Origin: Caulobacteraceae bacterium
Lineage (GTDB): Bacteria; Pseudomonadota; Alphaproteobacteria; Caulobacterales; Caulobacteraceae
Length of the DNA stretch: 64,000 bases
NCBI GenBank assembly: GCA_035541575.1
Contig: DATKMZ010000036.1
Span: forward strand, 486 to 64,485
Reading direction: 5' to 3'
How positions within the stretch are numbered: position 1 is the stretch's first letter; each line of letters begins with the position of its first letter. Below the pieces are notes generated by a model, which worked only from the letters and a program-made list of their open reading frames with translations, was not told the origin of the DNA and did not search any database. The position numbers and the translations under genes are program-made. Shown piece after piece: positions 1 through 10,357 of this stretch.

Positions 1-387
1 AAGCCCGGCGTAGACCTCGGCGTAGACCGCCTCGTAGCGCCGCGCGTAGGGTCCGCCTGGGCGAACGTCCGCGCCGCCGCCCGTCAGGCCGACGTCCCAC
101 GCGGTCTCGCCGATCCGGTGCGCATAGCCGACGTAGGCGGTGTAGCTCAGCGCGTCGCGATCGATGGCGCTCGCGCCGGTGACGCCCGCGTAGAGGCCGC
201 TGGGCGCATCGTAGCTCAGCGTGACGCCGATCGCGGGCCTTCCCTCGCTGAGGGAGACGCCCCGGTAGCGATTGTCGGACTGGAACTCGGCCTGGATCGC
301 AACTTGCGCCGCGGCCGGCGTCGTAGCGGCGAGCGCAAGGCCCGCCCAGATCGCGCCCAGCCAAAGCGGGCGCGGCCCCAACGTCAC
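1..387 (-). CDS. TorF-family (TIGR02001-like) putative outer-membrane porin, 3' end runs off the window
   Basis: Not in the ORF track. Manual translation from GTG at 387, which overlaps the TGA of the upstream subtilase (GTGA): MTLGPRPLWLGAIWAGLALAATTPAAAQVAIQAEFQSDNRYRGVSLSEGRPAIGVTLSYDAPSGLYAG. Signal peptide plus the SDxRYRGVSLS..PA motif typical of this family. Confidence 0.8.
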   Translation of the reverse strand, partial: MTLGPRPLWLGAIWAGLALAATTPAAAQVAIQAEFQSDNRYRGVSLSEGRPAIGVTLSYDAPSGLYAGVTGASAIDRDALSYTAYVGYAHRIGETAWDVGLTGGGADVRPGGPYARRYEAVYAEVYAGL

Positions 388-1610
388 TCGCGACGGCCCG
401 GGTCGAACGCCGCCTCGCGCAGCGGCGCGGCCGCGCATCTGTGGCCCGGGCCGAGCAGCGTCGCGCAGGCGTCGATAGCTCCGCCCGTCGGCGCTGTGGC
501 CAGCCTCAGCGGCGAGATGGGCGTGCGCTGGCGTATGAGCGCGACGAGGCCGCTGACGTGCGCGGCGGCGAACGAACTGCCGTTCACCAGCGCCCATTGG
601 CCGCCGGGCGTCGTGGTCGGCACCCCTTCCCCAGGCGCGGCGTAGACGCCGGCGGGCGCGCGGCCGGCCGCCTCGTCGGCGACTGCGATGACGCCAGGAT
701 GCGAGGCCGGGAAGCCGCCCGCCGGCAGCGCGGCGTCGAACGCCGCGACGGTGACGATGCGGCGCGCGTGGGCGATGTCGAGCAGCTTGCCGAGCAGCAG
801 GTCCGGCGGGCCGGCGATGCTGAGGTTCACCACCTGCGCGCTGTGGTCGATCGCGAAGCTGAGCGCCTTGGCGAGGCTCAAGGAGTCGCAAACGGTGTCA
901 CCCGCCGGCTCCTGCCAGCAGGCGCGCAGGGCCATCAGGCGCGAGCCCGGGGCCACGCCGGCGATGCCGACGCCGCGCGCGGCGATCACGCCGGCGACCG
1001 CGGTGCCGTGCCGTTCGGGCGTCTCGCCGTGGCCGGCGGCGAAGTTCTGGCTGACCGCGACCTGGCCGATGAGGTCGGGGTGTTCGCGGTCGACCATGCT
1101 GTCCACCACGGCCACGCGCACGTTGCGGCCGGTCGAGACGGTGTGGAGCAGCGCCAGGCGCCACTCCTTCGCCGCGGGCTGCGCCAGGAAGAGGCGGCCC
1201 TGCGGGGCCACGACGCCCTGGCCGCGGTAGAGGTTCATCGCCTGCGACCAGGCCACGGCCGGGTCGTGCGACAGGTGTTCGGCCATCTCGACCGTCGACT
1301 TGCCGGGCGGGGCGACAAACACGAAGCAGTCGACGCCGACCAGGGGCATCGGCCAGTTGTCGGCGACGGTCAGGCCGTTCTCGCGCGCCAGGCGGTCGGC
1401 GATCCGCCGCCGTGCGTTCTGGTCGGCGCCGCCGCCGTAGCCGCCGCCGAAGTCGGCGTTGGGGCTGGCGTGTTCGGGTGGCAGGCGCAGCATCACCAGC
1501 ACTTCGCGGCCGGGATCGGTCGGCTCGGCCGCGTTGGCGAGCGCCGTTCCGCCGGCGAGGACGAGGGCGCACGCCGCAACCCAGCCGCTGATGTGGGCCA
1601 GAAGTCTCAT
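384..1610 (-). CDS. Secreted S8 (subtilisin-family) serine peptidase
   Basis: Triad motifs VAVVDSMVD, RHGTAVAGVI and NGSSFAAAHVSG. Signal peptide MRLLAHISGW..ALANA. ATG 1610 overlaps the anti-sigma stop (ATGA). The ORF-track extension to 1949 is spurious. Confidence 0.9.
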   Translation of the reverse strand: MRLLAHISGWVAACALVLAGGTALANAAEPTDPGREVLVMLRLPPEHASPNADFGGGYGGGADQNARRRIADRLARENGLTVADNWPMPLVGVDCFVFVAPPGKSTVEMAEHLSHDPAVAWSQAMNLYRGQGVVAPQGRLFLAQPAAKEWRLALLHTVSTGRNVRVAVVDSMVDREHPDLIGQVAVSQNFAAGHGETPERHGTAVAGVIAARGVGIAGVAPGSRLMALRACWQEPAGDTVCDSLSLAKALSFAIDHSAQVVNLSIAGPPDLLLGKLLDIAHARRIVTVAAFDAALPAGGFPASHPGVIAVADEAAGRAPAGVYAAPGEGVPTTTPGGQWALVNGSSFAAAHVSGLVALIRQRTPISPLRLATAPTGGAIDACATLLGPGHRCAAAPLREAAFDPGRRE

Positions 1611-2251
1611 GGCGTGTCTCCCGCGATCGGCTCGGCCAGCGCGACGGCGGAACTGGCGCGCAGCGCCTTGAGCGCGGCTTCGCGCTGCGGCCGCGCGACG
1701 CGCAACGCGAAGGCGTCGGCGCCGTTCGGGCCCTCGGCGATCTGCGCGCCGCTGGCCCGCAAGACCTGGGCGATGTCTGCCGCTCGGGCCTCGGGCCTGA
1801 ACACCACCAGCACGTCGGCCGGCGGGCTCGGCGTGGGGCTGCTCAGAGCATGGAAGCGGGCAGGCGGCTCTGGCGCCGCGGCCTTCTGTGCGGGGACGGC
1901 GAGGAGGGCGACGATCGCCACGCCGGCGGCCGCGGTCCAGCCGAGCCAAGGCGTCCGCCAGGCCCTGACGGCCGCTCCGCGCGCCGCGGCGAAGGGGCCG
2001 CGCGGCGTTTCCGCCTCAGCTACACGGCGGCGCATGGCCTCCCATCCGCGCTCGATGTCGAGGGGCAGGGCGCCGACCTCGGCCTCGAGCCGCTGCTCGA
2101 GCAGAAGGTCCGCGCGGCACTTGGCGCAGGTCTCCAGGTGCGCAGCGACGCGCGCCCGCTCGTCGGCCTCCAGCCGGCCGGTCACGTACCAGGGCAACAG
2201 GAGCTGCGTGTCCTGGCAACGGTCGCCGGGGAGGCGGATCACCTTGCCCAT
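1607..2251 (-). CDS. Zinc-binding (zf-HC2/ZAS) transmembrane anti-sigma factor
   Basis: LLPWYVTGRL..HLETCAKC (HxxxCxxC), one TM segment (WLGWTAAAGVAIVALLAV) and a small C-terminal periplasmic domain. Lies directly downstream of an ECF sigma gene. Confidence 0.9.
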   Translation of the reverse strand: MGKVIRLPGDRCQDTQLLLPWYVTGRLEADERARVAAHLETCAKCRADLLLEQRLEAEVGALPLDIERGWEAMRRRVAEAETPRGPFAAARGAAVRAWRTPWLGWTAAAGVAIVALLAVPAQKAAAPEPPARFHALSSPTPSPPADVLVVFRPEARAADIAQVLRASGAQIAEGPNGADAFALRVARPQREAALKALRASSAVALAEPIAGDTP

Positions 2252-2258
2252 CGCCGCA

Positions 2259-2861
2259 TCAGAGCCAGTCGGCCAGCCGGCCGGGCAGCTTGTCGCGGAG
2301 GCGGCGGCGTGCGTGGAACATGCGGGTCTTCACAGTGTCCACCGGACAGTCCATCAGCTCGGCGATCTCGCGGTAGCCGATCTCGTGGAAGTAGGTGAGG
2401 TCGACGACCGCGCGGTGGTCGGCCGAAAGGCCGCCGATCGCGTCCAGCAATAGCTCCTGCACCTGGCGGCGGCCGAGCTGCTGCTCGGGTCCCGCCTCGC
2501 CGCTGGGGCGCAGGTCCGCGTCGAGATCCTCGACCGGCTCGTCGTGGCGGCTCAGCGCCTTCAGCGCCTTGCGGTAAGCGATGGCGAAGATCCAGGTCGA
2601 GACCTTGCTGCGGCCGTTGTAGCGCTCCGGCTGCTTCCAGACGACGAGCATGGTGTCGTTCAGCACTTCTTCCACCAGGTGCGGGCGGCGCAGGATCACG
2701 TTCAGGAAGCGCGTCAGGCGGGGATGGTAGTCGCGGTACAGCGTCTCGAACGCACGCAGGTCCTTGGCGCCGATGCGCTCGAGGAGCCGCACGTCGTCGG
2801 ACGCACGCTCCTGCGAGGTCGCCCCGGTCGCGCCGCTGGCCGCACCCTGCCTGCCGAACAT
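2259..2861 (-). CDS. ECF RNA polymerase sigma-70 factor
   Basis: Region 2 AFETLYRDY..EEVLNDTMLVVW..KVSTWIFAIAYRK and region 4 REIAELMDCPVDTVKTRMFHARRRL. Confidence 0.95.
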   Translation of the reverse strand: MFGRQGAASGATGATSQERASDDVRLLERIGAKDLRAFETLYRDYHPRLTRFLNVILRRPHLVEEVLNDTMLVVWKQPERYNGRSKVSTWIFAIAYRKALKALSRHDEPVEDLDADLRPSGEAGPEQQLGRRQVQELLLDAIGGLSADHRAVVDLTYFHEIGYREIAELMDCPVDTVKTRMFHARRRLRDKLPGRLADWL

Positions 2862-2886
2862 CCAATGTCCCTACACTACGGACGGT

Positions 2887-2914
2887 AGTTCCCGGTCCGG
2901 GCCACAAGGTTCAA
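2887..2914 (-). promoter_or_regulatory. Putative ECF autoregulatory promoter TTGAACC-N15-GGAACT
   Basis: Minus strand: TTGAACC ttgtggcccggaccg GGAACT, ending 26 nt before the sigma ATG. The same motif occurs at 4819-4846 and 4903-4930. Confidence 0.75.
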
Positions 2915-2955
2915 TCCCGCCGGGCCGCGAAGTGTAGGCCAACCGCGCCGGCGCG

Positions 2956-3354
2956 TCACTTCAGCGAGCCGAGATAGGCGATCAGCTGGTCGAGCTGCTG
3001 CGGACTCTTCAGGCCCGGATAGGTCATCTTCACCCCGGGCAGGTAGCGCTGCGGCGCCGGCAGGTAAGCGCGAAGGCGGTCGGGGGTCCAGGCGAAACCG
3101 GCGTGCTTCATCGTCGTCGAGTAGGCGAACCCCGCGATAGATCCCGCGGGCCGCCCCACGACGCCGAACAGCGGTGGGCCGATCAGGGCCGGGCGGCTCC
3201 GCGCGTCCGAGTGACAGGAACTGCACTGGGAGGCGAACACGCCCCGGCCGGCGGCGGCGTCGGCGACGGGGCCTGGCGAGGCGAGGGCGGACGCTGGGGT
3301 GACGGCGGCGAGCATCACGGCGCCGAGCGCCGCGCGAACTAGAACGCGGTCCAT
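2956..3354 (-). CDS. Periplasmic class I c-type cytochrome (cytochrome c2 family)
   Basis: MDRVLVRAALGAVMLAA.. signal peptide, CSSCH heme motif, IGPPLFGVVGRPAGS, distal Met in PGVKMTY. The start overlaps the upstream gene end by 16 nt. Confidence 0.9.
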   Translation of the reverse strand: MDRVLVRAALGAVMLAAVTPASALASPGPVADAAAGRGVFASQCSSCHSDARSRPALIGPPLFGVVGRPAGSIAGFAYSTTMKHAGFAWTPDRLRAYLPAPQRYLPGVKMTYPGLKSPQQLDQLIAYLGSLK

Positions 3355-4682
3355 GTGAAGAGCCTCAAGGTGTTGATGTCGGACGCCCGACGCCCTGCTC
3401 CGTCGAAATCCGTGCTCGCGCCGGCGAAGCGCGTGTAGGCCGTGTACTGAAGGCCGACGCGCAGGTTCAGCCGCCGCTTCGGCTGCGCATCGCCGCCGAA
3501 CGGCGTGCCGTCGATCTGCACCATGACGCCGCTCGTGTCCGGCCGCGCCGTGCGGCTGGCGGCGTAGAGCAGCGGATCGGCTGAACCGCTGGTGTCGAAC
3601 CCGGCCACCGTCAGGCCGATCTTGTTTCGCCAGTAGTAGGCGACGTCGCCGCGCACGTCGTCGAGGACGTCGTGCGCGTTGGCGGCAAGGCCCAGCGGCT
3701 GCGAGGCTCTCAGATCCTGACGTTCGTGCGTGAAGCGGGCGTTGAGGGTGACGACATCGCCGTTCGAGAGCGCGATGTAGTCCGACGCGTCGATTCCTGC
3801 GTCCGTGAGGACGTCGCTGACCCCCGCGCTGCGGTCCCGGGCGGGGAAGACGCCGGCCCGCAGGAAGAAGGCGCCGCCCTCCAGCGTCTGCTCGCCGAAC
3901 GTCTTCTGCCAGGCGAAGCGGGCGTAGGGGGCGAAGCCATCGATGTCGCCCGGACCGATCGGGTCGGCGCCAACGTTGCGCAGGAAGCGCGTGCTCGGCG
4001 AGCCGTAGGCGCCGGCCTCGAGGTAGACTTCGGAGTCCACCCAGGCGTAGCCGGTGAGGCCGATCACTTCCTGGGCCAGCGCGCCTGAGACCAGCGGCGC
4101 GGCCGGCGCCGACGGCGCGAGCGCGGAGTCGGTGTAAGGGTAACCCCACGCCGGCAGCGTATTCCAAGGGTCCTGGACCGTCGGATTGTTGTTGAGGCTC
4201 GCGCCGAAAAGGACGGTGGAATCGCCGAAGCTCTTCGTGGTCACCGCGCGCAGATCGGCGTTGTCCCAGCTGAAGCTTTCGCCGACGCCGTCGTAGGTGA
4301 CCTGCGCAAACGCGCCGAGATGCTGCCCCGCGCCGCCGGCGATGAACACGCTCACCTGGTCGAGCGCGACGTTGTTGTTGTCGTGGAAGCCGGGCGGCGG
4401 TCCGTCCTGGTCCTTCTGCGTGTTCAGGTACGAGGCGACCGCCATCACCGCGAGCGGGACGTTGATCGGGCCGGTGCGCGTCGTGTAGCCGCCGATCTTG
4501 AAGTTGCGGCCGTAAGGCGTGAGCTGAGGGCCGAAGCCCCCCACGTGGCAGGCCTGACACGGCTGGCCGGTCTGGGCCGCGAACGCCGGCACTGCGTGCG
4601 CCGGACCGGCGAGGACGAGGATCGCTCCGGCGCAGATCGCACCGGCGATGCGAAAATCAAAATCCACCCGTCGCGACCACAT
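3339..4682 (-). CDS. Cyc2-like fused monoheme cytochrome / outer-membrane beta-barrel
   Basis: After the signal peptide (AHA): VPAFAAQTGQPCQACHVGGFGPQLTPYGRNFKIGGY, matching the Cyc2 N-terminal pattern PxFARQTGxxCxxCH..PQLTPxGRxFK..G(Y/F). The remainder is Tyr/Trp-rich beta-strands ending in Phe (WTAF). The start may instead be GTG 4667. Confidence 0.8.
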   Translation of the reverse strand: MWSRRVDFDFRIAGAICAGAILVLAGPAHAVPAFAAQTGQPCQACHVGGFGPQLTPYGRNFKIGGYTTRTGPINVPLAVMAVASYLNTQKDQDGPPPGFHDNNNVALDQVSVFIAGGAGQHLGAFAQVTYDGVGESFSWDNADLRAVTTKSFGDSTVLFGASLNNNPTVQDPWNTLPAWGYPYTDSALAPSAPAAPLVSGALAQEVIGLTGYAWVDSEVYLEAGAYGSPSTRFLRNVGADPIGPGDIDGFAPYARFAWQKTFGEQTLEGGAFFLRAGVFPARDRSAGVSDVLTDAGIDASDYIALSNGDVVTLNARFTHERQDLRASQPLGLAANAHDVLDDVRGDVAYYWRNKIGLTVAGFDTSGSADPLLYAASRTARPDTSGVMVQIDGTPFGGDAQPKRRLNLRVGLQYTAYTRFAGASTDFDGAGRRASDINTLRLFTWTAF

Positions 4683-4818
4683 CTATTGGTCTCGCCAAAT
4701 AAGCTCTGCTTCTGGACTGTCGATCACCACCGCTCGGGGAGGTTACAACCAGCTAGTCGGAACGAAGTACGGTCATCGATCGCTGGATAACCTCCGAGGG
4801 TGCTGCGTCTGCGGCGTC

Positions 4819-4846
4819 AATACCCGCTACGCGCGAAACGGTTCAA
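4819..4846 (-). promoter_or_regulatory. Putative ECF promoter for the cyc2-like operon, TTGAACC-N15-GGTATT
   Basis: Minus strand: TTGAACC gtttcgcgcgtagcg GGTATT gac, about 140 nt upstream of the 4682 start. Confidence 0.65.
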
Positions 4847-4902
4847 ACGCGCGGATGGGGTGACGCGCGGTGGCGGAGGGCCGCTGTTTTTCGCCATCTG
4901 GT

Positions 4903-4930
4903 TTGAACCGTGGCCGCTCAGACGGGAATC
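4903..4930 (+). promoter_or_regulatory. Putative ECF promoter for the TIGR03118 operon, TTGAACC-N15-GGAATC
   Basis: Plus strand: TTGAACC gtggccgctcagacg GGAATC gac, 92 nt upstream of ATG 5023. Confidence 0.7.
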
Positions 4931-5022
4931 GACGGGCGCTGATCCCGCTTCGCGCGGCGGAGATCGGGGGGCTCAAGCGCGCCGAGGCGGCCCGTCGAAG
5001 CGAGGTTGGAGAGGAGCCCCCG

Positions 5023-6156
5023 ATGAAAACTGCAGCCGCACTCGCAAGCCTGGCCCTGGGCCTGATGGCTACCAGCGCGCTGGCGACGCCACGACCGCTC
5101 AGCGACGCGCAGCTGAGCGGCATCGTCGCCGGCGCGAACTTCATTGTCATCGACGAGATTTCCGACACCAACACGGTGGGCGCCAATCCGCCCGACGGCG
5201 CGCTGGTCAACGCCTGGGGCCTGTCGGAATTCCCGGATGGCGGCCCGCTGTGGGTCTCCAACAACGGCTCCGGCACGTCGACGTTCTACAACTTCAACAC
5301 GTTCGCGAAGGTCGGCCAGATCACCGTGCCCGGCTCAGGCGGCGCGCAGGGTGTGCCGACCGGCACTGTGTTCACCAGCGTCAAGGGCGACGACTTCGCC
5401 GTCACCGAGAACGGCAAGACCAGCCACAGCTTCTTCCTGTTCGATGGCGAGGACGGCACGATCTCCGGCTGGACGCCGGCGGTCGACCCCGGTTCGGCGG
5501 TCATCGCGGTCGACCAGTCGATGAGCGGCGCGGTGTTCAAGGGCCTGGCGATCGACGTGGACGCGTCCGAGCACCAGGACCGCCTGTTCGCCGCGGACTT
5601 CGTCCAGAACAAGGTCGAGGTGTTCAACGGCAAGTTCCAGCAGATCGGTTCGTTCACCGACAATTCGCTGCCGGCCGGCTATGCGCCGTTCAACGTCCAG
5701 GTGCTGCACGACAAGGTCTACGTAGCGTTCGCGCTGCGGGGCGACGGACTCGACGAGCAGCATGGCGCCGGTCTCGGCTTCGTCGAGGTGTTCAACGAGC
5801 ACGGCGTGAAGATCAAGACGCTGGTCTCCGGCGGGCCGCTCAACGCGCCGTGGGGCCTGACGATAGCGCCCAAGAGCTTCGGCAAGTTCGCCGGCGCGCT
5901 GCTCGTCGGCAACTTCGGCGATGGCAAGATCAACGCCTTCAACCCGAACACCGGCGAGTTCCTCGGCACGCTGAGCTCGCCCGGCGGCGCGCCGGTCTCG
6001 ATCGACGGTCTCTGGGCGTTGCGTAACGGACCTGACGGTTCGGTCGTATTCTCTTCCGGTCCTGACGATGAAAACCATGGCCTGGTCGGCGTCATCCGAC
6101 CCAGCTGGGCCAAGGCGTCCTGGGCGTACCAGTCGCACGTCGTCATGGGCCACTAG
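5023..6156 (+). CDS. Secreted TIGR03118-family protein (probable beta-propeller) with a double-glycine-type leader and no PEP-CTERM tail
   Basis: SD gaggag, then MKTAAALASL.. signal peptide. Family motifs LVNAWGL, PTGTVF, GEDGTISGW, FKGLAI, LPAGYAPFNVQ, PLNAPWGL, LLVGNFGDGKINAF, IDGLWAL. Confidence 0.85.
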   Translation: MKTAAALASLALGLMATSALATPRPLSDAQLSGIVAGANFIVIDEISDTNTVGANPPDGALVNAWGLSEFPDGGPLWVSNNGSGTSTFYNFNTFAKVGQITVPGSGGAQGVPTGTVFTSVKGDDFAVTENGKTSHSFFLFDGEDGTISGWTPAVDPGSAVIAVDQSMSGAVFKGLAIDVDASEHQDRLFAADFVQNKVEVFNGKFQQIGSFTDNSLPAGYAPFNVQVLHDKVYVAFALRGDGLDEQHGAGLGFVEVFNEHGVKIKTLVSGGPLNAPWGLTIAPKSFGKFAGALLVGNFGDGKINAFNPNTGEFLGTLSSPGGAPVSIDGLWALRNGPDGSVVFSSGPDDENHGLVGVIRPSWAKASWAYQSHVVMGH

Positions 6157-6169
6157 TCCTGGTCTGCCG

Positions 6170-6871
6170 GTGACCCGTCCCTCGCACGGGCGGACCAGTT
6201 CGGCCGCGTTCGCCATCGCTACAACCCTCGCGGCGGTGGCGAACGCGGCCGTAGTCTTCGCGGCGGCGCGCCCGGACGCGAAGCTGATCCATTCCCTCGC
6301 CGAGATCCGCAACGCGCAGGTGGTCCGCCAGGAGTGGGACCTCTCGTGCGGGGCTGCGGCCGTGGCCACGGTGCTCACCTACCAGCTGGGCCACGCCGTA
6401 ACCGAGCGGGAGGTAGCGCTCGCCCTGCTGCGGCGGACGACGCCGGCGCTGGTGCGCAGCCGTCAGGGATTCTCGCTGCTCGACCTCAAGATCTATGCGG
6501 CCACGCAAGGGTACGCGGCCGCCGGTTACGCCGACATGGATCTCCCCGACCTGGATGCCGCCGCGCCGGCGATCGTGCCGATCCGGTCGCACGGTTTCCG
6601 GCACTTCGTGGTCTACCGGGGCCGAGCCGGCGGCCTGGTGCTGGTGGCCGATCCGGCGTTCGGCAACCGGACGATGCCGGAGGCGGCGTTCCGCGAGGCA
6701 TGGGCCGGCGGCGTCGGCTTCGTCGTATTCGACCCGGCCGATCCGCACCCGCCCAATCGCATGGGCGCGCCGGCCGGGCTCTTTCTGGCAACGAGCGCCC
6801 AAGCGGAACGCCGCGCCGTCTTCGGCCCAGGGCCTGTCGTCGCCAGCAGTCCGGTGGGGAGCGCGCCATGA
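6170..6871 (+). CDS. Stand-alone periplasmic C39 cysteine peptidase (FapD-like)
   Basis: VVRQEWDLSCGAAA (Cys), FRHFVV (His), VADPAFGN (Asp), GFSLLDLK. N-terminal hydrophobic signal. GTG 6170 chosen as start, 13 nt after the upstream stop. Confidence 0.9.
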   Translation: MTRPSHGRTSSAAFAIATTLAAVANAAVVFAAARPDAKLIHSLAEIRNAQVVRQEWDLSCGAAAVATVLTYQLGHAVTEREVALALLRRTTPALVRSRQGFSLLDLKIYAATQGYAAAGYADMDLPDLDAAAPAIVPIRSHGFRHFVVYRGRAGGLVLVADPAFGNRTMPEAAFREAWAGGVGFVVFDPADPHPPNRMGAPAGLFLATSAQAERRAVFGPGPVVASSPVGSAP

Positions 6872-7995
6872 ACCGCTTCGCAATGCTCGCAATGGCCGCC
6901 GCGGGCTTCGCGCTCGCAGGGCCGGCGCTCGCCCAGCCGCTGACCCGGGAAGAGCTGCAGCAGGCGCTGGCCCAGCGCGACCAGGCTATCGCCGCGCTCG
7001 AAAGGCGGATCGCGGCGCTGGAAGCGCAGCAAGGGCGCGAAACACCGCCGGCTGCGAGCGCGATCAAGACCGTGCCAGCCACCGACGCCGCGCCCGGCGC
7101 CGGCGTCGCCGCAGCCGCTTCGGGCGCAAGCGCCGGCGACGAGGTCGCGCTGCAGGCGCTCTCGCGCGGCCTGGTGCAGCGCGGGCTGCTGCTGCTCCCG
7201 GCGTGGAGCTTCGAGCTCTCCCCGAGCGTCGGCTACGACCACTCGCAGCAACAGGGTCTGGCGCTGGTCGACACGCCCGAGGGCATCTCGACCGTCAACG
7301 ACCGGCGCCAGCGCGACGACGACATCGAGCCGGCGATCAGCGCGCGGCTCGGCCTGCCCTGGCGCAGCCAGGTGCAGATCAGCGTCCCGTTCGATTGGAA
7401 GCGCACCTCGTCGGCGCTCGGCGACAACGCCGAGATCAACCACACCGCCGCGCATGTCGGCGACGTGCAGGTGGAGTTGAGCCACCAGTTCCTGGTGGAG
7501 GACAGCGGCTGGCGGCCGGACCTCATCGCCGGCATCGGCTGGCGCGCCCCGACGGGACTCAACGCCTACAAAGCCGAAGTCGCGGCGGTGGCGAACGGCG
7601 TCGGCAGCAACGCGGTCACCGGACGTCTGACGGCCCTGAAGACAATCGATCCGCTGGTCGTCTTCTCGACGCTCTCCTACGCCCACAACTTCAGCTATCC
7701 GCAGAGCGTCGGTCGCGTCACGGTCGGCGACACCGCCGACTGGGTGCTCGGAGGCCTCCTGGCCGTCAGTCCCGACACTTCGCTCAGCTTCGGCTTCGAC
7801 CAGCAGTTCAAGATGGTCACCCGCGTGAACGGCGCGAAGATCGCCGGCAGCGACGGCGTCGCGGCCTCGGCCCAGTTCGGCCTCGATCAGGTGCTGAACG
7901 CGCGCGCGCTGCTCGACGTGACGGTCAGCGTGGGCGTCACCAAGGACGCACCGGATTACGCCGTCATGGTCTCGCTGCCGATCCGGCTGCGGTGA
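6868..7995 (+). CDS. FapF-like outer-membrane beta-barrel transporter with N-terminal coiled coil
   Basis: Signal peptide, heptads EELQQALAQRDQAIAALERRIAALEAQQ, an Ala-rich linker, then ALSRGLVQRGLLLL..GDVQVELSHQFLVE..PDLIAGIGWRAPTG..PDYAVMVSLPIRL. ATGA-coupled to the C39 gene, as fapD/fapF-type pairs are. Confidence 0.75.
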   Translation: MNRFAMLAMAAAGFALAGPALAQPLTREELQQALAQRDQAIAALERRIAALEAQQGRETPPAASAIKTVPATDAAPGAGVAAAASGASAGDEVALQALSRGLVQRGLLLLPAWSFELSPSVGYDHSQQQGLALVDTPEGISTVNDRRQRDDDIEPAISARLGLPWRSQVQISVPFDWKRTSSALGDNAEINHTAAHVGDVQVELSHQFLVEDSGWRPDLIAGIGWRAPTGLNAYKAEVAAVANGVGSNAVTGRLTALKTIDPLVVFSTLSYAHNFSYPQSVGRVTVGDTADWVLGGLLAVSPDTSLSFGFDQQFKMVTRVNGAKIAGSDGVAASAQFGLDQVLNARALLDVTVSVGVTKDAPDYAVMVSLPIRLR

Positions 7996-8015
7996 GGCGC
8001 CCTCGGCGACGGCGT

Positions 8016-8816
8016 TCAGGCAGACGCCGGGAACTGGTCGGCGAGATAGCGCAGATCGGCGGCCATGCCGGTGTTGGCGGTGACGCCGAGACCCAACCAG
8101 TCCTGCATCTGCGGCCCGAGCGAGGCCTGGGTCTCGGCCGAGAGGCAGGCGTTCCAGTTCACCTGAGGCCTGAGGAAGGGGACCGTGTAGTAGCCAAACA
8201 GCAGCGCCCGGTCCTCGTCGTTGGTGACGTTGGCGCCTGAGGTGTGCCACATCCGCCCGTCCATCACGACGATCGAGCCGGCTTTCGCTTCGAATGGCGT
8301 CAGGCGTTTGTCCGCATCCGGCGGAACCTCGGCGCGCGTGCGCCAGCGGTGACTGCCCGGGATGTAGAGCGTGGCGCCGTTGTCGCGACGCACGTCCGTC
8401 AGGCACCAGATGATGTTGACCGCCCACGGCTGCAGCCAGGGCTCGGGCACGACGAGCGACTGGTCCGAGTGCAGCGCCATCGACTCCGAGCCGGGCCGGG
8501 CGATGTTGGCGGTGAAGTTCGAGATCAGGAACTGCGGGCCGATCACCTGCCGCACCATCTCGAGCGCGACCGGATGCTGGATCAGTTCGCGGAATATCTC
8601 GTCGCGCTCGAGCAGGTAGAAGACCCGCACGTTGCTTGCGTTCGGATCGAGCACCGGCAGGAACGTCGGCATGCCCCGCCGCTCGCTCTCGTCGGCCGCC
8701 GCCCAGAGCCTTCGCAGCGCGTCGGCCGTCTTTGCGGGCGGGAGCACGTTCGGCACGACGCACCAGCCGTCCTCGGCGAGCCGGACCTTGGCGTTGTCTG
8801 CCGCTGACCCGTCCAT
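8016..8816 (-). CDS. Phytanoyl-CoA dioxygenase (PhyH) family Fe(II)/2OG dioxygenase
   Basis: ALHSDQ (HxD), TDVRRDNGAT, WHTSG..NVT..DRAL. Confidence 0.88.
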   Translation of the reverse strand: MDGSAADNAKVRLAEDGWCVVPNVLPPAKTADALRRLWAAADESERRGMPTFLPVLDPNASNVRVFYLLERDEIFRELIQHPVALEMVRQVIGPQFLISNFTANIARPGSESMALHSDQSLVVPEPWLQPWAVNIIWCLTDVRRDNGATLYIPGSHRWRTRAEVPPDADKRLTPFEAKAGSIVVMDGRMWHTSGANVTNDEDRALLFGYYTVPFLRPQVNWNACLSAETQASLGPQMQDWLGLGVTANTGMAADLRYLADQFPASA

Positions 8817-8830
8817 CGTCCTTTGCGCCC

Positions 8831-9652
8831 CTAGGCCGGCGAAGCGCCGTTCACGAGGCCGAGCCCCTGGGTCTTGTAGCCCAGCAGCACCAGCGCCTCG
8901 TCGGAGGCGAACTGGCGCACCTCGGGCCGCAGCGACAGGAACCAGTTCTCCTGGGTGCGGTAGATCGGGCGCGTGTACCAGGCGAACACGCCGACGCGGC
9001 CCTGATCTCGGGTCACGTTGTTGCCGGTGCGATGCCACACCCGGCTCTCGAACACCACGGCAGAGCCGGCGGAGGTCTCGACCGGCACGGTCCTGACGCC
9101 AGCGTCGGCCGCGCCCGGCGAGCGGTTCAGCCGGTGGCTCCCGGGCGCGAAGCAGGTCGCGCCGTTCTCGGCGGTGAAGTCGTCGAGGCGCCAGGCGACA
9201 TTCAGCCCCTGCGGCGCGGCGGGCCAGGGCTCAGGCACGAACAGCTGATCTGCGTGCAGCACCATCTCGCCGCCGCCTGGATAGGTGATGTTGGCTGAGA
9301 TGTTGCCCAGCGCCGCCGGCCAGCCCAGCACGCCTTTCACGTAGGCGACGGCGAGTGGGTGGAATGCGAGGTCCTCGAACAGCGGGTCGCGGCTCAGCAC
9401 GTTCCAGACGCGCGCGTTGGTCTCGTCGTGCGCATAATCGAGGCCGAACTTCTGGGTTCGGGCGCGGTCCCGGTCCGACTCGGCGGCGCGGTACAGCGCC
9501 TCGCGCGTCCGCTTAAGGGTATCGCCCTCGAGCACGTCCGGCACGATGGCGAGGCCGTAGTCGGCGATGTCGCGCAAGCCTTGGGCTACGTCGCGCGTCG
9601 GCGGCGGGACGTCGAGATCGGGCGCGTCGGCGGCGCGGTGCTGAACGGCCAT
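8831..9652 (-). CDS. PhyH family Fe(II)/2OG dioxygenase (tandem paralog)
   Basis: VLHADQ, DDFTAENGAT..PGSH, VWHRTG.N. Start MAVQHRAAD at 9652. Confidence 0.88.
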   Translation of the reverse strand: MAVQHRAADAPDLDVPPPTRDVAQGLRDIADYGLAIVPDVLEGDTLKRTREALYRAAESDRDRARTQKFGLDYAHDETNARVWNVLSRDPLFEDLAFHPLAVAYVKGVLGWPAALGNISANITYPGGGEMVLHADQLFVPEPWPAAPQGLNVAWRLDDFTAENGATCFAPGSHRLNRSPGAADAGVRTVPVETSAGSAVVFESRVWHRTGNNVTRDQGRVGVFAWYTRPIYRTQENWFLSLRPEVRQFASDEALVLLGYKTQGLGLVNGASPA

Positions 9653-9817
9653 GGGCGGGTCTCGGGTATTCTCTACACCCAGAGCCTGAACCGCCTGACC
9701 CCTGGGAACACAACGGCCGGCGCAAGCCGATCGGCGTCGATGATGCCGCGCGATAGAGGTCCGAAAACCGCGAGTGGAGCCCTGGGCCAACACCCTTCGC
9801 CGCGCCATATTGGCGGT

Positions 9818-10357
9818 ATGATCCGTTACGCCATCTTCGAAACCGCGATCGGGTGGGCCTCGATCGCCTGGAACGACAAAGGCCTCGTTGCGGTCCGCCT
9901 GCCCGAGCGCGACCCCGAAGGAACGCGTCGCGCCGTCCTGAAGCGCTTTCCCGAGGCCGTGGAGCGCGATCCCGTAGGCGAAGGCTGGGGTCCTCTCATC
10001 GAGGGCGTGCGCGCACTGATGCGTGGTGAGAAGGCCGACCTCTCGGCGGAGCGGCTCGATCTCGATCGCACGTCCGACTTCAACGCCCGGGTCTATGAGA
10101 TCGCCCGTCAGGTCCCGCCCGGCGAGACGACGACCTATGGCGAGATCGCGTTCCGGCTCGGCGACCGGCTGCTGGCGCGCGACGTCGGCGTCGCGCTCGG
10201 GCAGAACCCCTGGCCGATCGTCGTGCCCTGCCATCGCGTCACCGCGGCCGGCGGCAAGCTCGGCGGCTTCTCGGCGCCGGGCGGCGCGCGCACGAAGCTG
10301 AAGCTGCTGGCGATCGAGGGCGCGGCCGTGGCGGCCCAAGGCGAGCTCTTCGCCTAG
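9818..10357 (+). CDS. ogt: Methylated-DNA--protein-cysteine S-methyltransferase
   Basis: VPPGETTTYGEIA..NPWPIVVPCHRV active-site motif. Confidence 0.92.
   Translation: MIRYAIFETAIGWASIAWNDKGLVAVRLPERDPEGTRRAVLKRFPEAVERDPVGEGWGPLIEGVRALMRGEKADLSAERLDLDRTSDFNARVYEIARQVPPGETTTYGEIAFRLGDRLLARDVGVALGQNPWPIVVPCHRVTAAGGKLGGFSAPGGARTKLKLLAIEGAAVAAQGELFA

Follow-up and report, generated by a model that had tools for sequence, protein, structure and literature searches.

The window analysed in this work, a stretch of 64,000 nucleotides (nt) from a Caulobacteraceae bacterium (contig DATKMZ010000036.1), carries on its reverse strand the gene of a haem porin, followed by the gene of a periplasmic cytochrome c. 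We estimate at about 0.6 the probability that the two products constitute an inward electron conduit, most probably fed with Fe(II), the expression of which is induced through a sigma factor of the extracytoplasmic function (ECF) type. Comparison with known proteins places the porin in the Cyc2 superfamily, as a divergent branch and not as a textbook Cyc2. Cyc2 is the most widely used marker of neutrophilic iron oxidation; most of its homologues occur in organisms for which iron oxidation was never demonstrated, and what they do is a matter of open debate.

According to the definition given by Keffer 2021 (PMC8406198), Cyc2 proteins have a signal peptide, one CxxCH, a 16-strand porin and a length of at least 365 amino acids (aa). 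The same study described a motif ahead of the CxxCH, AXPXFAR[Q/K][T/Y], that was termed unique to Cyc2, as well as a PXL sequence after the haem site, placed 4 residues past the CxxCH. The porin of the window falls within this definition both in length (447 aa) and in barrel (16 strands). Its signal peptide, MWSRRVDFDFRIAGAICAGAILVLAGPAHA, is followed by VPAFAAQTGQPCQACHVGGFGPQLTPYGRNFKIGGY, the A-x-A site immediately ahead of VPAF is conserved in the alignment, and the C-terminus reads TWTAF. The sole CxxCH of the protein is CQACH (residues 42-46), located near the N-terminus after the signal peptide, in a region which reads AVPAFAAQTGQPCQACH-VGGFG-PQL. The haem His is thus residue 46, the corresponding residue being His47 in Acidithiobacillus ferrooxidans Cyc2, His47 in Cyc2PV-1 and His44 in Cyt572 (PMC13741234). 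The segment A-V-P-A-F-A-A-Q-T matches the published motif at 8 of 9 positions, with Ala in place of Arg.

With a cut-off of E<=1e-3, a profile of the clade retrieved 3300 clusters (50% identity) from 1.84 billion representatives; 630 of these clusters remained at E<=1e-30. PxFARQT..CxxCH..PxL is seen in most of the best representatives. Among the 128 listed ones with a CxxCH detected near the N-terminus, 83 have ARQT ahead of the haem site. Full-length identity to homologues with the canonical motif ranges from 35 to 37%. A Ralstonia solanacearum megaplasmid protein shares 37% identity over residues 37-447 (E 1e-59); it contains AVPAFARQTGMACMACH..PEL, its motif region reads AVPAFARQTGMACMACHVSFPEL, and its gene is directly followed by that of a dihaem c4-type cytochrome, as in cyc2-cyc1. 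Identity to a protein on plasmid pACRY03 of Acidiphilium cryptum JF-5 is 35%, and a published similarity network links Acidiphilium homologues to A. ferrooxidans Cyc2 (PMC10654088). Neither the porin nor six relatives with the canonical motif matched any family of Pfam or NCBIfam at E values up to 10, and RefSeq labels the relatives 'hypothetical protein' or 'cytochrome C'. A preliminary description of the locus, made from the letters of the DNA, had proposed a Cyc2-like protein with signal peptide, haem motif, beta-barrel and terminal Phe in a Caulobacteraceae-like genome. This layout agrees with our reading of the open reading frame (ORF) and with the 16 strands of the structural model described below; the name Cyc2-like is borne out by an architecture that fits the definition of Keffer 2021 (PMC8406198), by the 8 matching motif positions and by profile homologues that carry the exact motif; and the best relatives are indeed from Caulobacteraceae, including Phenylobacterium.

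The AlphaFold2 (AF2) model, built on 49 homologues, reached a mean predicted local distance difference test score (pLDDT) of 78.4 and a predicted template modelling score of 0.79, and comprises 16 beta strands between residues 77 and 446. Foldseek comparison of the model with the PDB returned 16-strand porins only, including OprO (4rjw) and OprP (2o4v), with E values of about 8e-8; OprO and OprP are also the templates reported for Cyc2PV-1 (PMC8406198). A PDB search with the porin sequence gave nothing meaningful. The haem segment (residues 27-52) has a pLDDT below 50, which is expected for a model in which the cofactor is absent, AF2 carrying no haem.

Conservation was analysed in 120 full-length representatives. 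The CxxCH is invariant (120/120) and, together with the surrounding 25 residues, forms the best-conserved part of the protein. Outside the haem module, conservation is highest at residues 161-186, with the consensus NNxPTxxDxWNTxPAWGxPY, where N164, N165, P167, D171, N174, W179 and P182 are kept in 86-98% of the representatives. In the AF2 model this segment runs from the last part of strand 5 (155-164) into the long loop that leads to strand 6 (207-215), which is the position of the L3 constriction loop of porins. Residues 161-186 may form a constriction loop, a part of the haem pocket or a metal site. Met80 is the only widely conserved candidate for the sixth haem ligand.

The porin departs from the Cyc2 consensus at two points. 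At the Arg position of the motif, the 82 alphaproteobacterial loci compared have A, V, E, D, I, M, Q or T, and Arg is found once. In addition, PQL is present after a spacer of 5 residues (VGGFG) counted from the CxxCH, compared to 3 in the consensus. In a tree of 121 representatives, the proteins with the long spacer all belong to one clade of 49 (support 0.93), and the 21 representatives that have the long spacer but no Arg are all inside this clade. The published tree of 1,593 sequences was built with the filter PXFAR[Q/K][T/Y] (PMC8406198), which would have excluded the porin because its motif lacks the Arg; published Cyc2 trees may therefore under-count this Arg-less branch.

The second gene of the operon encodes a class I cytochrome c with its own signal peptide, a CSSCH at residues 44-48 and a KMTYPG sequence that provides the Met110 ligand. 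It matches Cytochrom_C of Pfam (PF00034) with an E value of 1.3e-8 (36.5 bits, cut-off 21.3), and its full-length matches in the PDB are mitochondrial cytochrome c, cytochrome c2 and the cy domain of a cbb3 supercomplex (E 4e-26 to 3e-22). With the NCBIfam equivalog for CycA c-550 it scores 72.7 bits, below the cut-off of 240. The porin and cytochrome c genes overlap by exactly 16 nt (3339-3354). The ATG of the cytochrome c gene spans the codons of porin residues Thr443 and Trp444 (acATGg), its A closing the Thr443 codon and its TG opening that of the invariant Trp444; the conserved C-terminal beta-signal of the porin and translational coupling hence constrain each other.

The genomic comparison covered 82 loci. 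Of these, 80 came from genomes that represent species (a total of 592 being confirmed), and the other two were the window and a paralogue carried by the same genome. The search of genome contigs gave close relatives only, with no named iron oxidiser among them. In 22 of the 82 loci the two genes overlap with this same 16-nt geometry, which, together with the invariant CxxCH, indicates that the arrangement is not due to chance. A small high-potential iron-sulphur protein (HiPIP) with a twin-arginine translocation (TAT) signal is encoded directly upstream on the same strand in 40 loci, an adjacent same-strand c2-type cytochrome, usually downstream, in 30-36, and both in 2. Loci without either carrier are mostly at contig ends; overall, a redox carrier gene adjoins the porin in roughly nine out of ten loci. 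On the maximum-likelihood tree the type of partner is clustered, yet it changed at least 8 to 9 times, which indicates that the porin works with an interchangeable, soluble, high-potential one-electron carrier. Conserved carrier adjacency is the strongest sequence-level evidence for haem-borne electron transfer across the outer membrane, which it supports. The coupling to a class I cytochrome c put forward in the preliminary description (CSSCH, distal Met, 16-nt overlap) thus read exactly as claimed, and both overlap and adjacency turned out to be conserved. Two other ideas were discarded. A chance position of the cytochrome c beside the porin is contradicted by the conserved overlap and adjacency, and an old split of the porins into a HiPIP-type and a cytochrome-c-type paralogous family by at least 8 partner switches on the tree.

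The paralogue of the same genome is a haem porin of 452 aa (L003:6384-7742, contig C112; loci are cited by our own numbers). It is preceded by the gene of a TAT-signal HiPIP (L003:6074-6373, PF01355) and followed by that of an inner-membrane cytochrome b561 (7826-8449, PF01292), and the whole cluster (L003:6074-8449) seems to cover the entire route between outer and inner membrane, the periplasm included.

Three copies of an ECF-type promoter were identified in the window. One, TTGAACC-N14-GGGTAT, lies ahead of the porin-cytochrome operon at some 135 nt from the ATG; another precedes the gene of an ECF sigma factor, which would provide for autoregulation; and the third faces a divergent operon that encodes a TIGR03118 family protein, a C39 peptidase and an outer-membrane protein. 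In the 4.24-Mb genome, the pattern TTGAACC-N14-GGGWAY, which was derived from these same three sites, matches exactly these three and nothing else, each in the right orientation; no match was obtained with the reversed pattern, and the expected number for the window is 0.02. Independent support comes from orthologous loci only. The motif, in the form TTGAACC-N16-GnAyTnAC, lies before the sigma factor gene in L005, L006, L033, L038 and L063. Wherever porin, cytochrome c and sigma factor genes occur in this layout (L005, L006 and L063), it also precedes the porin operon, and it is found before two HiPIP-type operons that adjoin a sigma module (L033 and L042), the background of TGAACC being 0.22 per kb per strand. 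A scan for sigma-70-like promoters (window 1-8200) and an Rfam scan (window 1-9000, including the leader of about 135 nt) both found nothing. The earlier suggestion of ECF control instead of constitutive expression was strengthened in this way, by a motif that is shared with the promoter of the sigma factor gene, unique to the locus within the genome and conserved in orthologous loci. The three operons that share the predicted promoter likely form one regulon, and we infer that the motif is read by the sigma factor encoded here.

With these elements, the following course of events can be proposed. The operon would be switched on from its ECF-type promoter as part of an envelope response. One covalent c-type haem would sit in the N-terminal ~45 residues of the mature porin, and a small soluble reductant, most probably Fe(II), would enter the barrel and reduce it. 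The electron would then pass to the c2-type cytochrome c in the periplasm, which would hand it to a cbb3 (or aa3) oxidase. C2-type cytochromes and HiPIP classically donate to oxidases or reaction centres, and inward electron flow is favoured because both carrier types do so. What the analysis shows directly are the gene structure, the fold, the family relationship and the conservation of partner genes and promoter motif; that the haem is attached, that electrons run inward, that Fe(II) is the reductant and that the oxidase is the sink are the steps that we infer. The genome contains ccoN of a cbb3 oxidase (740 bits), and a RuBisCO large subunit was not found in it at 97% completeness. For a heterotroph, the benefit would be auxiliary energy, or detoxification of Fe(II) or other reductants, Fe(II) being removed before it reacts with oxygen species, and not lithoautotrophy. 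Auxiliary or detoxifying Fe(II) oxidation is the most likely function.

Several points weigh against this proposal. The distal haem ligand is not certain, since Met80 is kept in only 69% of the representatives, and the low pLDDT of the haem segment means that its place in the barrel is not fixed by the model. Given the Ala at the Arg position and the 5-residue spacer, the haem pocket may differ from that of characterised Cyc2 proteins. ECF control is lineage-specific, as most family members lack the promoter, and the promoter pattern has the circular origin mentioned above. The authors of the Cyc2 study warn against function transfer across long branches (PMC8406198), and the function of the alphaproteobacterial clade is putative.

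Other uses of the same components have to be weighed as well. Electrons could flow in the opposite direction: supplied by respiration to the soluble carrier (cytochrome c or HiPIP), they would exit by way of the haem porin and reduce an oxidant outside the cell or in the periplasm, for instance Fe(III) chelates, Mn(III/IV), humic quinones or reactive oxygen species. The paralogue of the same genome, flanked by a HiPIP and by an inner-membrane cytochrome b561 (a quinone-linked protein), would suit such a route; however, cytochrome b561 adjoins the porin in only 2 of the 82 loci, and the two carriers are classical donors to oxidases or reaction centres and are not terminal reductases. Likewise, a recently characterised Cyc2 at -130 mV (PMC13692758) shows that the family is not high-potential throughout, but all three characterised members are Fe(II) oxidases (PMC8406198, PMC13741234), and we consider outward flow quite unlikely. 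It is very improbable that the protein is an ordinary diffusion porin whose CxxCH is unused for electron transfer, the haem being structural or unattached. The facts that no family model covers the protein, that RefSeq calls its relatives 'hypothetical protein' and that the haem segment is poorly modelled would be compatible with this; the CxxCH and the 25 residues around it are nevertheless the best-conserved part of the representatives, a conservation which makes an inert haem unlikely, and a redox carrier gene adjoins in roughly nine out of ten loci.

A further explanation, which we find doubtful, regards the pair mainly as an envelope-stress or redox-sensing device that reports or buffers the outside redox state, as one arm of an ECF regulon centred on TIGR03118 secretion or processing. 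The promoter is indeed common to the porin operon, the sigma/anti-sigma/S8 operon and the TIGR03118/C39/outer-membrane-protein operon, the sigma module stands beside porin operons of both the cytochrome-c type and the HiPIP type (L005, L006, L033, L038, L058 and L063), and the organism is a heterotroph. About 90% of the family loci, however, have neither a nearby sigma module nor the motif, so that the porin-carrier pair works independently of them, and no link between the haem porin and the anti-sigma factor was found. Inward, Fe(II)-fed electron transfer is the reading that we retain, and the coordinates of the features concerned are collected in the table.

Table. Features of the porin-cytochrome locus and its surroundings (positions in the window)
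Feature	Position	Strand	Basis or remark
Cyc2-type fused monohaem cytochrome-porin, 447 aa	3339..4682	-	ORF, AF2 model, Foldseek, clade profile
Signal peptide of the porin, residues 1-30, predicted cleavage after AHA	4593..4682	-	Sequence itself
Haem module AVPAFAAQTGQPCQACHVGGFGPQL, residues 30-54	4521..4595	-	CxxCH at 42-46; Ala for consensus Arg at residue 36
Most conserved non-haem segment ASLNNNPTVQDPWNTLPAWGYPYTDS, residues 161-186	4125..4202	-	Conservation in 120 representatives and AF2 model
Periplasmic class I (c2/mitochondrial-type) cytochrome c, 132 aa	2956..3354	-	Pfam PF00034, PDB matches
ECF-type promoter TTGAACC-N14-GGGTAT	4820..4846	-	Before the porin-cytochrome operon
ECF-type promoter, same motif	2888..2914	-	Before the sigma factor gene (autoregulation)
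ECF-type promoter, third copy	4903..4929	+	Faces the divergent TIGR03118 operon
ECF sigma factor, 200 aa	2259..2861	-	Pfam Sigma70_r2 and r4_2; NCBIfam sigma70-ECF TIGR02937 above cut-off
Anti-sigma factor, N-terminal zf-HC2 and periplasmic C-terminal domain	1607..2251	-	Pfam zf-HC2, E 6.6e-10
Secreted S8 subtilase	384..1610	-	Pfam Peptidase_S8, E 3.5e-21; start overlaps the anti-sigma stop by 4 nt
Divergent TIGR03118 operon, likely same regulon	5023..7995	+	ECF-type promoter; co-located with the sigma module
TIGR03118 family protein, secreted	5023-6156	+	NCBIfam TIGR03118, 308.8 bits
C39 peptidase	6068-6871	+	Pfam C39 match; partial FilB/FapD-like matches
Outer-membrane protein, N-terminal coiled coil	6868-7995	+	

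The closest known relatives of the porin are the Cyc2 proteins (A. ferrooxidans Cyc2, Mariprofundus Cyc2PV-1, Leptospirillum Cyt572 and Ghiorsea Cyc2TAG1_1; PMC8406198, PMC7029218). They share with it the signal peptide, the single CxxCH with its His at about residue 46, a length of 440-485 aa, A-x-P-x-F-A-x-Q-T before the haem and P-x-L after it, the 16-strand OprO/OprP-like barrel and an adjoining gene for a periplasmic cytochrome. Unlike these references, the porin has Ala for the motif Arg, a CxxCH-PxL spacer of 5 and not 3, an ECF-type promoter, and as host a wetland heterotroph devoid of RuBisCO. At the level of gene order, the cyc2-cyc1 pair of the A. ferrooxidans rus operon (PMC10654088) and that of Ralstonia and other Burkholderiales likewise consist of a haem-porin followed by a periplasmic c-type cytochrome. 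The partner is a dihaem c4 in that case, whereas here it is a monohaem c2/mitochondrial-type cytochrome (HiPIP in sister loci), and rusticyanin and cox genes of the rus operon are missing from the operon in the window. The HiPIP-type sister loci and the same-genome paralogue can also be compared with PioABC of Rhodopseudomonas palustris (PMC13741234), which joins an outer-membrane conduit to the periplasmic HiPIP PioC. PioB, however, is a 26-strand barrel around a separate decahaem protein, whereas one haem is fused to a 16-strand barrel here, and the two systems are not homologous.

As for the genes that surround the porin operon, the S8 subtilase is syntenic with the sigma and anti-sigma factors in at least six other genomes (L005, L006, L033, L038, L058 and L063). 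The periplasmic C-terminal part of the anti-sigma factor resembles Fervidolysin_NPro weakly (E 0.0017, below cut-off). This likeness to a subtilase prodomain, together with an adjoining S8 gene that overlaps by 4 nt, suggests that the anti-sigma factor either is a target of the protease or retains it. The TIGR03118 operon is co-located with the sigma module in L005, L006, L038 and L058, and its layout of TIGR03118 protein, C39 peptidase and outer-membrane protein recalls the FapD/FapF amyloid secretion pair. For TIGR03118, nothing relevant was found in the literature, and no Pfam or PDB information was available. Taken together, and with low confidence, the locus might be a self-contained inducible envelope response of wetland heterotrophs to extracellular Fe(II) or reducing stress, in which the S8 subtilase would act on the prodomain-like anti-sigma factor and free the sigma factor for a Cyc2-type/c2 electron drain and a TIGR03118/C39/outer-membrane channel, the Arg-less long-spacer subfamily having been overlooked.

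DNA of the locus occurs in wetland metagenomes, as found by DNA search. The haem-porin family is present in 50 of 201 Caulobacteraceae species genomes, representing 10 of 27 genera and often with two copies, and in 14 of the 19 genomes sampled from the host genus. It is also frequent in Sphingomonadales and Rhizomicrobium, and the gene is carried by named isolates such as Novosphingobium sp. FSW06-99 (L063, a cultured relative that has the porin/cytochrome c/sigma layout), N. malaysiense, Polymorphobacter arshaanensis and Sphingomonas oligophenolica. Cyc2 homologues are well documented in organisms not known as iron oxidisers (PMC8406198, PMC10654088), and FeGenie surveys reported cyc2 in communities of aerobic anoxygenic phototrophs (PMC13702023). 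Literature linking Cyc2 with Caulobacter or Phenylobacterium in this sense was not found.

If the low-confidence reading of the locus as an inducible envelope response is correct, the Arg-less long-spacer subfamily, found in about a quarter of Caulobacteraceae species, would be an overlooked Fe(II)-oxidising reservoir of soils and wetlands. The clade is tractable, being common in cultivable alphaproteobacterial heterotrophs and having its carrier encoded next door, and in some lineages the dedicated sigma/anti-sigma pair could be manipulated in order to force expression. Three traits deserve note: a haem module that lacks the Arg and has the long spacer, a partner that may be either c2-type cytochrome or HiPIP, and an ECF promoter dedicated to the locus.

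Some minor observations concern mobile copies and flanking genes. The conjugative plasmid pACRY03 of A. cryptum JF-5 (L085) carries an Arg-less homologue (FAAQT) beside a transposase; a cytochrome c gene lies some 500 nt downstream of the homologue. A match with scores identical to those of L085 was obtained on CP084173.1, a plasmid record under the name of Acidithiobacillus ferrooxidans, which reflects either horizontal transfer or a mixed culture. Just past the predicted regulon, two adjacent ORFs of 340 and 502 aa (window 8016-10339, reverse strand) resemble, by eye, phytanoyl-CoA dioxygenase (PhyH) family proteins; no connection with the porin operon was apparent. At the other end, the S8 protease gene is followed by a gene that covers window positions 1-438 on the reverse strand and runs on to position 159 of contig C36; its product of about 255 aa ends in WFF and is similar to outer-membrane beta-barrels, and relatives of it are found near the sigma module in five other loci (e.g. 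L063:7745-8548).

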